27,194 bases of DNA from a virus (taxonomy: Duplodnaviria > Caudoviricetes): positions 1 through 27,194 of IMG/VR virus record IMGVR_UViG_3300020045_006965; one strand, 5' to 3'. The position numbers and the translations under genes are program-made. Within the stretch, counting starts at the first letter, position 1; the number at the start of each line of letters is the position of its first letter. Shown one piece after another: positions 13,111 through 25,107 of this stretch. The notes under the pieces are model-generated. The model had not been told where the DNA came from. It made no database searches and saw only the letters and a list, made by a program, of their open reading frames with translations.

Positions 13111-13213
13111 CTCGGATTCGTATAGTGGAAAATACAGAGGTCTTCTTTTATTCTTTCGAAATAGAGAATAAAAGAAGCCCCTAACGTCAGTTCGATTCTG
13201 GCATCCGAGACCA
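13111..13213 (+). tRNA. tRNA-Arg (UCG or UCU) with 28-nt hairpin insert in the anticodon
   Basis: Acceptor CTCGGAT/ATCCGAG, D stem GTAT/ATAC, T arm GTCAG-TTCGATT-CTGGC, A-CCA; 103 nt, or 75 nt without insert. Confidence 0.8.
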
Positions 13214-13214
13214 A

Positions 13215-13260
13215 ATTAATATTAAAATACTTTAACGATATAAAGTATTTTAATATTAAT
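13215..13260. repeat. 20-bp perfect inverted repeat ('empty' member of the ATATTRAA stem family)
   Basis: ATTAATATTAAAATACTTTA-ACGATA-TAAAGTATTTTAATATTAAT. Confidence 0.9.
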
Positions 13261-18829: not shown

Positions 18830-18940
18830 TAATATCCGAATCCTCTGCCTGTTGAAAGATACAACGCATGATATCTAGAATTTACTAGTGAAACCTATGG
18901 ACGCATAGGTCTACGGAAATCTCGTCTGTGATAAGCAGAC
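18830..18940 (+). ncRNA. Run of three hairpins, candidate structured RNA
   Basis: ATATC..TGC..GTTG/CAAC-GCA-GATAT; ACCTATG-GACG-CATAGGT; GTCTG-TGATAAG-CAGAC. Confidence 0.45.
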
Positions 18941-18942
18941 AT

Positions 18943-19052
18943 CATATTAAAACATACTGTTTAACTGTTAGGTGACACGAATCAGCGAACTATATTAAAT
19001 TGTAGCAGGTTGATGTCATAGGTTCGAGTCCTGTACAGTATGTTTTAATATG
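18943..19052 (+). ncRNA. tRNA-like RNA enclosed in an 18-bp perfect stem
   Basis: CATATTAAAACATACTGT/ACAGTATGTTTTAATATG; T arm ATAGG-TTCGAGT-CCTGT abuts the 3' arm. Confidence 0.7.
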
Positions 19053-19091
19053 GTAAGTTAAAAGGAATGTGGGCAGTACCATAGCAATGAC

Positions 19092-19224
19092 CATATTGAA
19101 GCACTTTTGTGGGGTAAACAATGAGGGCAGAGTAGTTCCTTGCTCATGTTATCAACGGCATGAATAGGATAAGACGCTGAGCGACCTGATTTTATTCTGT
19201 ATGTAAAGAAAGTGCTTCAATATG
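19092..19224 (+). ncRNA. Structured RNA enclosed in a 16-bp perfect stem
   Basis: CATATTGAAGCACTTT/AAAGTGCTTCAATATG; inner stems GCAGAGTAG/TTATTCTGT and TCATGTT/GGCATGA with G-U pairs. Confidence 0.65.
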
Positions 19225-24085: not shown

Positions 24086-24203
24086 GGACGATTGGGTGAG
24101 TGGTTGAAACCGAGGGACTGATACGGAACATCTGTTAAAACGGGTGTTCAAATAAATCCCTTCCTTAAAAAGCACGCAGGTTCAAATCCTGCTCCGTCCA
24201 CCA
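24086..24203 (+). tRNA. tRNA-Tyr (GUA) with 32-nt hairpin insert in the anticodon
   Basis: GGACG/CGTCC acceptor (2 inner mismatches), GGT/ACC D stem, AGGGA/TCCCT, long variable region, GCAGG-TTCAAAT-CCTGC, A-CCA. Confidence 0.75.
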
Positions 24204-24249: not shown

Positions 24250-24337
24250 TGCTGATATGGTGATCCTTGTTGTGTATACAACGTCTGAATAAAATCAGAA
24301 GAAAATACGGGGTAAAAATCCTCACGAAATATCAGCA
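24250..24337 (+). ncRNA. Cloverleaf-like structured element
   Basis: TGCTGATAT/ATATCAGCA closing GTTGT/ACAAC, TCTGA/TCAGA and GGGG-TAAAAAT-CCTC. Confidence 0.5.
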
Positions 24338-25014
24338 CTCATTATTGCGGGTAGTGTAGCCAACAATCCAGTGCATGCAATTTTATTCTTCAATTCTATA
24401 AATGCAGATTCTGGTGAATAATATCTATCTTCATATATTTCTACTATCCATCCCATTTTTTGAAATTCTTTAATTTTAATAGAATCTCTATTTTGGACTT
24501 GTTTTAAAGAATGATTTTTGAACCCCATTTCTCTATAATGCCACGGTCCATTCCATAATATTGCAATTTTATAATCGTGCAGAAGAATATCGGCATCCCA
24601 ACCATTAGCTATAGATGTATCATTACTAGTAACATTAATGAAATGATCAACACATAAATCAAAAAGTTTAATTTCATCTTTAGATCTTTTATTTTGTATT
24701 GCTGCTGATGATTTACCGCCTTTTCGACTACCTTCGGTCATCAATTTTCTTCTACAGTCGGGAGTGCAGGATTTTCTTTTGGTATATGAAAGAAAATAAT
24801 TATTACAGCAAGTACATGTAAATTCTTTCAATAATTTCTCTTTAAATAATTTCTCTTTCTTTGGTTTATTCTTTAATGTATTACTTCTTTTTAAATTAGT
24901 CTCAATTGAATGAGTTCTAGAATTGGCACAATTTCTAGAACAATAAATACCTTCTTTGAAATGTAAATTAAAACATTTTAAACAAAATTTTTCTTGTGGG
25001 ATTTTAATTTTCAT
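24322..25014 (-). CDS. Vsr/DUF559-like putative homing endonuclease with Cys-rich zinc repeats
   Basis: YCSRNCAN, CTCC...SCTPDC, RS..E..L, DADI...KIAI.WNG.WHY, RD..K...GW. Confidence 0.75.
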   Translation of the reverse strand: MKIKIPQEKFCLKCFNLHFKEGIYCSRNCANSRTHSIETNLKRSNTLKNKPKKEKLFKEKLLKEFTCTCCNNYFLSYTKRKSCTPDCRRKLMTEGSRKGGKSSAAIQNKRSKDEIKLFDLCVDHFINVTSNDTSIANGWDADILLHDYKIAILWNGPWHYREMGFKNHSLKQVQNRDSIKIKEFQKMGWIVEIYEDRYYSPESAFIELKNKIACTGLLATLPAIMSADIS

Positions 25015-25029
25015 GATAATTGTCTCCGA

Positions 25030-25107
25030 TAAATAACAATGAAGGACAGCACAGGTATCCGTACTGTGTTTCCAAGAACTTCAATTTCTTGGATTACTTC
25101 TTATTTA
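25030..25107. promoter_or_regulatory. Two-hairpin leader between convergent TAAATA motifs
   Basis: + TAAATA 25030-25035, - TAAATA 25102-25107; GCACAG/CTGTGT and TCCAAGAA/TTCTTGGA. Confidence 0.55.

Follow-up and report, generated by a model that had tools for sequence, protein, structure and literature searches.

A 32-nt hairpin after G34 of a phage tRNA-Tyr gene has the layout of an RNase III site and may be a minimal intron

The window analyzed here, which is the entire 27,194-base virus record IMGVR_UViG_3300020045_006965 (Caudoviricetes), contains a tRNA-Tyr gene whose anticodon is split after the first base by a 32-nt hairpin. The locus raises the question of whether the hairpin is removed from the transcript and, if so, by which enzymes. 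To our knowledge, no protein-based tRNA splicing is recognized in bacteria. The window is a fragment of a T4-like phage, with genes for ribonucleotide reductase, PhoH, a sliding clamp, clamp loaders, RegA, GroES, and several homing-endonuclease-like ORFs. Its clamp loader was at most 54% identical to those of GenBank phages, and its closest relative was L509 (RegA 91% identical).

The interrupted gene and its relatives

The earlier note described a tRNA-Tyr gene with a 32-nt hairpin insert after G34, and the sequence was found to be as it described. The body showed all of the bacterial-type tRNA-Tyr features it named (class II, G1-C72, A73, and GUA after removal of the insert). Deletion of 24121-24152 gave an 86-nt tRNA-Tyr(GTA) with an ARAGORN score of 115.5, compared with 116.9 for the tRNA-Thr of the window, and the other excision registers gave ATA, GAA, or GAT on a body that scored as Tyr. 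The gene was missed by default ARAGORN, and Rfam RF00005 spanned 24086-24200 with a score of 39.2 bits, leaving 33 nt in the anticodon loop unmodelled. The insert (24121-24152) consisted of ATACG, a 10-bp stem with a TAAA loop, and AAA. Its fold of -12.2 kcal/mol (z -5.5) was equalled by none of 200 shuffles, whereas its reverse complement folded at only -3.5, because the stem contained two U.G pairs, as the note had reported. A terminator reading of the insert was rejected, since there was no U-run on the plus strand and the minus strand folded weakly. Rfam held no family for the insert or for the free-standing hairpin discussed below. The insert gave no BLAST match in GenBank phages, and the whole gene matched GenBank phages in the exons only and plasmids once, in the T-arm only.

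Table 1. Positions of the interrupted tRNA genes, their parts, and the adjoining ORF in the window
Feature	Position	Strand	Basis or remark
tRNA-Tyr 5' exon, G1 to G34	24086..24120	+	Rfam, isotype profile, ARAGORN
4-nt leader ATAC, not part of the RNase III-type unit; 5' junction predicted to be single-stranded, with an RNase E-like UG↓AU at 5 nt from the stem	24121..24124	+	putative function
28-nt RNase III-type unit, T7 R1.1 register	24125..24152	+	fold, alignment, comparison with the T7 site
Parts of the unit: one mismatched pair, 10-bp stem 24126-24149, tetraloop, 3-nt trailer	within 24125..24152	+	
U.G at stem position 8, A-U at position 2; predicted cut	between 24152 and 24153	+	
tRNA-Tyr 3' exon, U35 to CCA, long variable arm; starts with TAAA, also the flank of the free-standing hairpin	24153..24203	+	
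Interrupted tRNA-Arg(TCT), 28-nt hairpin at 36/37 (13147-13174)	13111..13216	+	second interrupted tRNA in the window
Free-standing homing-endonuclease-like ORF, 230 aa, adjoining tRNA-Tyr	24322..25014	-	weak PHROG 3339 match, E 1e-4

Three further tRNA-Tyr genes with a 31-33-nt hairpin after G34 (L280, L250, and L249) were taken from the ranked rows, among the matches listed, of a full IMG/VR pattern scan (15 stretches) and a scan of 28 of 64 metagenome parts (best 120 of about 280 stretches). The four sequences represent about three lineages, so counts of four out of four are not independent. The contigs of L250 and L249 had 60% and 37% G+C and gave one and five weak protein matches to the window, respectively. 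The predicted spliced forms scored 101-115 with ARAGORN across the family. Loop-masked isotype profiles ranked Tyr best for all four members at both training sizes, the profiles having been trained on tRNAs from the loci gathered here, in which Tyr was over-represented. Compared with the tRNA-Tyr of Limnohabitans phage DC31, which is uninterrupted, the exons of L280 were identical at 31/34 and 41/52 positions, and the alignment gap fell exactly between G34 and T35; the window row was misaligned and was left out. On this alignment, the uninterrupted DC31 orthologue fixes the insertion at 34/35, and the site given by the earlier note is thus supported by an intact orthologue and by same-site inserts in three other contigs. 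In L509, the syntenic place was occupied by an intact tRNA-Tyr(GTA) whose sequence differed from that of the window gene.

Other scans contributed little to the family. In prokaryote genomes (best 120 of about 170 stretches, 116 distinct), 85 stretches ended in an intact loop, and the 31 others included 7 with tRNA-like pairing, among which there was no family member. Loose pattern scans returned mostly chance matches or intact tRNAs among the best 119 of about 160 stretches (L118 and L078 were real and L103 was a eukaryote-type intron) and among the best 119 of about 190 (with L143 and L216), and none with a T arm among the best 119 of about 220. A further scan of 44 stretches (39 distinct) found only two already known members. 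Other inserts in tRNA-Tyr loops were a 36-nt acceptor-plus-T-arm minihelix in L246/L303 (5001-5089, minus strand) and a 22-nt short hairpin in L291 (3513). L288, L262, L336, and L369 carried tRNA-Tyr 3' halves with GC-rich double hairpins of 31-35 nt between G34 and TAAA, those of L288 being in tandem. Permuted tRNA-like halves, 3' before 5' with a short loop closing the acceptor end, were seen at about 34230-34345 of G002 (in L502).

The window and L280 inserts were identical at 27 of 32 positions, with two compensatory pair changes, while their exons shared only 21/36 and 34/53 positions; near-identical inserts in divergent exons indicate that the insert moves between alleles. The exons of L249 and L250 (31/36 and 46/50 identical) were instead better conserved than their inserts (19/33). 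Both sides had changed in 4 of the 11 pairs drawn for the four members, in an alignment where L249 was not in structural register. As read from these comparisons, compensatory changes together with strand-specific U.G pairs need selection at the RNA level, which supports the suggestion made in the earlier note.

The movement of the insert could also be that of a passenger which inactivates the gene and spreads by destroying the target of a neighboring homing endonuclease while the host gene decays. Endonuclease-like ORFs did lie downstream of the interrupted gene at about 120 nt in the window and about 60 nt in G002. The two acceptor-stem mismatches that had raised the prospect of decay are real (6:67 and 7:66). 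They leave 5/7 pairs, as few as in 6 of 125 intact Tyr tRNAs from the gathered loci, and because of them the window copy may be an unspliced decoy or a decaying passenger. However, L249 and L250 kept 7/7 acceptor, 5/5 anticodon, and 5/5 T-stem pairs, and their conserved exons and the RNA-level selection on the stem are not those expected of a passenger. In addition, the neighboring ORFs of the window and G002 were unrelated to each other, and G001 had no such ORF beside its interrupted tRNA-Tyr. We regard loss of the gene to such a passenger as unlikely. The sole GenBank relative of the 230-aa ORF of the window was found in the Lak-C1 tRNA cluster, and the IMG/VR scan gave no relative; this ORF is a possible vehicle of insert spread.

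Several structured elements were observed around these genes. A perfect 20-bp AT-rich inverted repeat (13217-13260) directly followed the tRNA-Arg gene, and the stretches 24250-24340 and 25045-25095 held a long-range inverted repeat 3' of tRNA-Tyr and two hairpins at the far end of the endonuclease-like ORF. A tRNA-like element (about 18940-19055, plus strand), which had a T arm and whose closing stem was extended to 18 bp, was followed by a second long-stem element (19080-19222, plus strand), which was 88% conserved in L509; neither matched Rfam at gathering score.

RNase III-type layout and a predicted route of removal

RNase III substrates are described in passages of PMC1540722 as an 11-bp helix giving a 28-nt product with 5'-phosphate and 3'-OH ends, U.G being a stringent determinant in the distal box and G-C being excluded from proximal-box position 2. 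According to excerpts of the respective papers, the T7 R1.1 site contains an internal loop of 4/5 and receives a single cut in vivo (PMC6121014), its cleavage yields 47 and 13 nt (PMC4858673), and loops can restrict RNase III cutting to one strand (PMC3867540). In the T7 genome sequence, R1.1 consisted of a 10-bp stem, a tetraloop, and a 3-nt trailer, and its cut position was set from the 28-nt and 13-nt product sizes. When the cut was set at the 3' exon junction, all four Tyr inserts had a 3-nt trailer, with U.G at stem position 8 and A-U at stem position 2. These are the two most stringent RNase III determinants, and the tRNA-Arg insert also had U.G at the former position and A-U or U-A at the latter; both pairs occurred in 24 of 309 background hairpins from 1.16 Mb of phage DNA. 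The R1.1-type spacing, about 11 positions from cut to loop with the cut 3 nt past a 10-bp stem, was also found, L249 having 11 bp and a 30-nt unit. As judged by this register, all four Tyr inserts copy the T7 R1.1 layout, with a predicted cut at the 3' exon junction.

The features shared with T7 R1.1 and uR1.1 were the 10-bp stem, tetraloop, 3-nt trailer, and 28-nt unit, the distal-box U.G, the A-U at proximal-box 2, and an internal loop under the stem. R1.1 lies between mRNAs, whereas the Tyr insert lies in a tRNA loop; the internal loop of the latter is 8/7 instead of 4/5, and only 8-16 of 28 letters were identical. The distal-box U.G and the lack of G-C or C-G at proximal-box 2 held in 4/4 members. 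The remaining preferred pairs (db1 U-A, pb1 G-C, pb3 A-U, pb4 A-U/U-A) were found 0/4 times in the window, 1/4 in L280, 2/4 in L249, and 3/4 in L250, so that five of six box positions agreed in L250 while the window copy missed the preferred pairs at positions 1, 3, and 9. The tRNA-Arg insert provides a comparison within the window. It was the same 28-nt unit when aligned on the 3' junction, with U-A/U.G at the distal-box positions, and it sat at 36/37 with the exact geometry of a double-cut product, including a 2-nt 3' overhang, in contrast to the Tyr inserts with their leader at 34/35. Neither default ARAGORN nor Rfam at its gathering score detected the tRNA-Arg gene. It scored 114.3 with ARAGORN after removal of the insert, and its isotype profile was equivocal between Arg and Gly.

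The 2-nt 3'-overhang geometry was not found at both junctions of the Tyr inserts, all four of which had 3-4 extra 5' bases. Double cutting by RNase III would leave ATAC, ATAC, ACA, or ACT on the 5' exon, and a second activity is therefore needed to reach an intact loop. The 10-11-nt loops that RNase III alone would leave after religation open another reading, in which the RNA is never spliced to a 7-nt loop and the tRNA scaffold with its RNase III site, either nicked or with an enlarged loop, acts as a decoy that draws RNase III or nucleases directed at tRNA-Tyr. tRNA-Tyr is a defense target (PMC11555353). A second Tyr-like gene stood beside the interrupted one in L280 and L249. Uninterrupted Tyr(GTA)-like genes with unusual loop flanks adjoined it in L280 (934-1013) and G001 (37613-37700), so the interrupted gene may be dispensable there. 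A decoy would nevertheless have no need of a predicted cut exactly at the exon junction, as seen in 4/4 members, and the anticodon halves G and TA were also kept in 4/4. Moreover, changes in the anticodon or stem abolished rescue by phage tRNA-Tyr in the excerpted results of Azam 2024 (PMC11555353). A decoy is in our judgment improbable.

Excision in another register would place a recoded tRNA on a Tyr body. Only excision at 34/35 (GTA) or 35/36 (GAA) gave one anticodon in all four members. In the window and L280, excision at 36/37 had a formal 2-nt-overhang geometry, and the second U.G, at position 6, was in register. However, the 36/37 anticodons differed among members (GAT and GAC, read as GAU or GAC), the geometry was absent in L249 and L250, and the proximal box would fall in unpaired bases. 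Since the bodies score as Tyr and DC31 fixes the insertion at 34/35, a recoded tRNA is very improbable.

The reading that we prefer, at a little below an even chance, is that the tRNA-Tyr insert is a minimal intron whose 3' end would be cut by RNase III and whose 5' end would be cut by RNase E or trimmed, with a phage RNA ligase sealing the exons. Splicing by any route appears slightly more probable than retention of the insert. In the first step, the internal loop would limit host RNase III to one cut, as in T7 R1.1, located 3 nt past the 10-bp stem and leaving a 5'-phosphate on U35. The freed strand would then be cut between G34 and A by host RNase E to give a 3'-OH, at a distance of 5 nt from the stem-loop that follows, or of 4 nt in two relatives; a second RNase III cut with trimming of 3-4 nt could serve as a fallback. 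Finally, an ATP-dependent phage RNA ligase (Rnl1 or Rnl2) would join the ends without healing. RNase E leaves a 5'-phosphate and a 3'-OH, and Rnl1 and Rnl2 join 5'-phosphate and 3'-OH ends.

The RNase E cut at the 5' junction is the weakest step of this proposal. According to passages of 10.1101/341578, the RNase E cut in MicL (AAAUG↓AUUU) lies 5 nt ahead of a stem-loop, whatever sequence is inserted, and the cut in RNAI lies 4 nt ahead of one; the consensus excerpted from PMC5222698 is RN↓WUU. The window junction was UG↓AU, 5 nt before the stem, and L250 and L249 had 4 nt and a C at +2. Scored against the motif, the distance of 4-5 nt was found in 4/4 members, U at +2 in 2/4, and a purine at -2 in 0/4. 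The UG↓AU core and the 4-5 nt to a 3' stem-loop are shared with MicL and RNAI. By contrast, these RNAs need two tandem stem-loops (two adjacent stem-loops were required for MicL cleavage in the same passages of 10.1101/341578) and MicL also needs Hfq, whereas the candidate Tyr site lies in an internal loop of a tRNA.

RNA ligases are common in T4-like phages. In the five records searched, Rnl1 was found in two and Rnl2 in three; both were present in the two complete relatives, and Rnl2 was present in the insert-bearing G001. RtcB and phage RNase III were found in none of the five. No ligase was seen within the 27-kb window, where a 502-aa ORF was considered as RtcB and rejected.

Comparison with known introns and origin of the insert

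Group I introns occur at 34/35 of bacterial tRNA-Leu(UAA), likewise after the wobble base. They have a catalytic core, an exon-end U, and a terminal G, whereas the Tyr inserts have none of these, their exons ending in G and the inserts in A or C (4/4). A group I intron was ruled out, as 32 nt compares with a core of about 200 nt or more, the junction bases are wrong, and no Rfam intron matched. An archaeal or eukaryal endonuclease intron was also ruled out, as there was no bulge-helix-bulge and the central helix had 2, 2, 3, and 2 of 4 pairs.

The earlier note had mentioned short tRNA introns in megaphages. Such introns exist, but the "enigmatic" introns of Lak megaphages are given in the consulted sections of Devoto 2019 (PMC6784885) as 79-141 nt with a tRNA-like domain, not as short hairpins, and part of a 2026 survey (PMC13037316) repeats this description. 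Both kinds are conserved inserts that do not belong to group I, lie in the anticodon loop of tRNA genes from large phages, and have no known splicing route, and the W-T-A-C start of the window insert is similar to that of the Lak introns. The Lak introns lie at 36/37 or 35/36, whereas the Tyr insert is a single 32-nt RNase III-type hairpin at 34/35, and the Tyr inserts have no internal tRNA-like domain. Six Lak-type introns began with W-T (ATAC three times, ATAG, TTAC, and TTAA), and WTAC had a frequency of 1% in the window. By a definition of the W-T-A-C-like leader that is ours and not that of Devoto, the window and L280 had it and L250 (ACAC) and L249 (ACTA) did not.

Two of the three Lak-type ATAC leaders depend on reading "Tyr" genes as Asn at 35/36. 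The intron-bearing "Tyr" genes of L711 (Lak-A1) and L508 (G004) had class I bodies with short variable loops and G73, which we take to be the Asn discriminator; excision at 35/36 gave GTT, and Lak-A1 had a separate intact class II Tyr. These features make tRNA-Asn the likely identity of both genes, although their isotype profiles did not place Asn first, with Gly or Lys at the top.

A leader shared with Lak-type introns could instead be the site of a dedicated phage endonuclease that makes both cuts, the RNase III likeness then reflecting only the origin of the insert. The carriers are fragments (10-52% complete), so the gene for such an enzyme could go unseen. However, no candidate splicing protein was common to the window, G001, and G002, the RNase III boxes were kept in register, and the five records searched held neither a phage RNase III nor RtcB. 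We give a dedicated endonuclease only a small chance, and the minimal intron processed by RNase III remains the preferred reading.

A possible source of this intron was found outside tRNA genes. A pattern of the insert core, three bases, and TAAA, which fixed the core letters and TAAA and left the outer stem, the lower stem pairing with TAAA, and the intergenic place free, matched 33 stretches in IMG/VR. Full hairpins directly after a terminator-like site accounted for 27 of them, 26 in one phage group and L718 in another; the other six were L250 itself, two before an HNH ORF, two inside an ORF, and a weak one. In the loci examined from the two groups, the free-standing hairpins followed major-capsid genes, which belonged to different families. 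L718 and L714 had the lower stem in which TAAA is paired, and the L718 hairpin was nearly the L250 insert, leader and trailer included. Among nine aligned sequences, 7/10 pairs changed on both sides and 95% of cells were paired, compared with 38-48% in slid controls, figures that give no probability because the set includes R1.1 and related sequences. Across L712-L744, which come from two phage groups, a conserved RNase III-type hairpin separated the terminator of the major-capsid gene from the gene that follows.

From these likenesses, we infer that the tRNA-Tyr loop acquired an RNase III-type signal of intergenic origin by recombination. A processing hairpin with a TAAA 3' flank would have entered the only tRNA loop that offers TAAA at such a place. 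The TAAA of tRNA-Tyr would replace the natural flank, which would explain both the site and the cut at 34/35.

Possible function and meaning

Cleavage of tRNA-Tyr by colicin E5 takes place between Q34 and U35 and depends on YGU (passages of PMC1635277), and retron-Eco7 depletes tRNA-Tyr, which a phage tRNA-Tyr rescues only if functional (excerpts of PMC11555353 and PMC10264068). The insert breaks the YGU in the precursor, where it is absent until splicing, and protection of the precursor from anticodon nucleases is therefore possible; such protection would last only until splicing. It is equally likely that the insert is mobile and tolerated.

Phage tRNA introns are already known and so far unexplained; for those of Lak, described in 2019, the literature found offers no mechanism as yet. 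Nothing was found there on RNase III-dependent or short-hairpin phage tRNA introns, and the parts seen of PMC12619734 and 10.1101/2021.08.26.457843 held nothing relevant to such introns; later jumbo-phage supplements (e.g. PMC13037316 Fig. S2C) may list such inserts. New at this locus are an insert at 34/35 that carries a leader, a putative source element standing free of tRNA genes, and the resemblance of the leader to that of Lak-type introns. Such genes are overlooked or wrongly labelled by standard tRNA finders.

The free-standing hairpins hint at the way in which introns of this kind originate and at the reason that the present one lies at 34/35 of tRNA-Tyr. More broadly, and tentatively, captured mRNA-processing signals may become spliceable tRNA introns, with host RNase III, host RNase E, and a phage ligase forming a protein-based pathway in bacterial cells whose 5' signal would also serve the Lak introns. 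With a 118-nt gene, named enzymes, and predicted cut sites, the question of splicing is addressable in E. coli. If the proposal is true, maturation of the Tyr tRNA would be gated by a phage ligase and the precursor would be hidden from anticodon nucleases.
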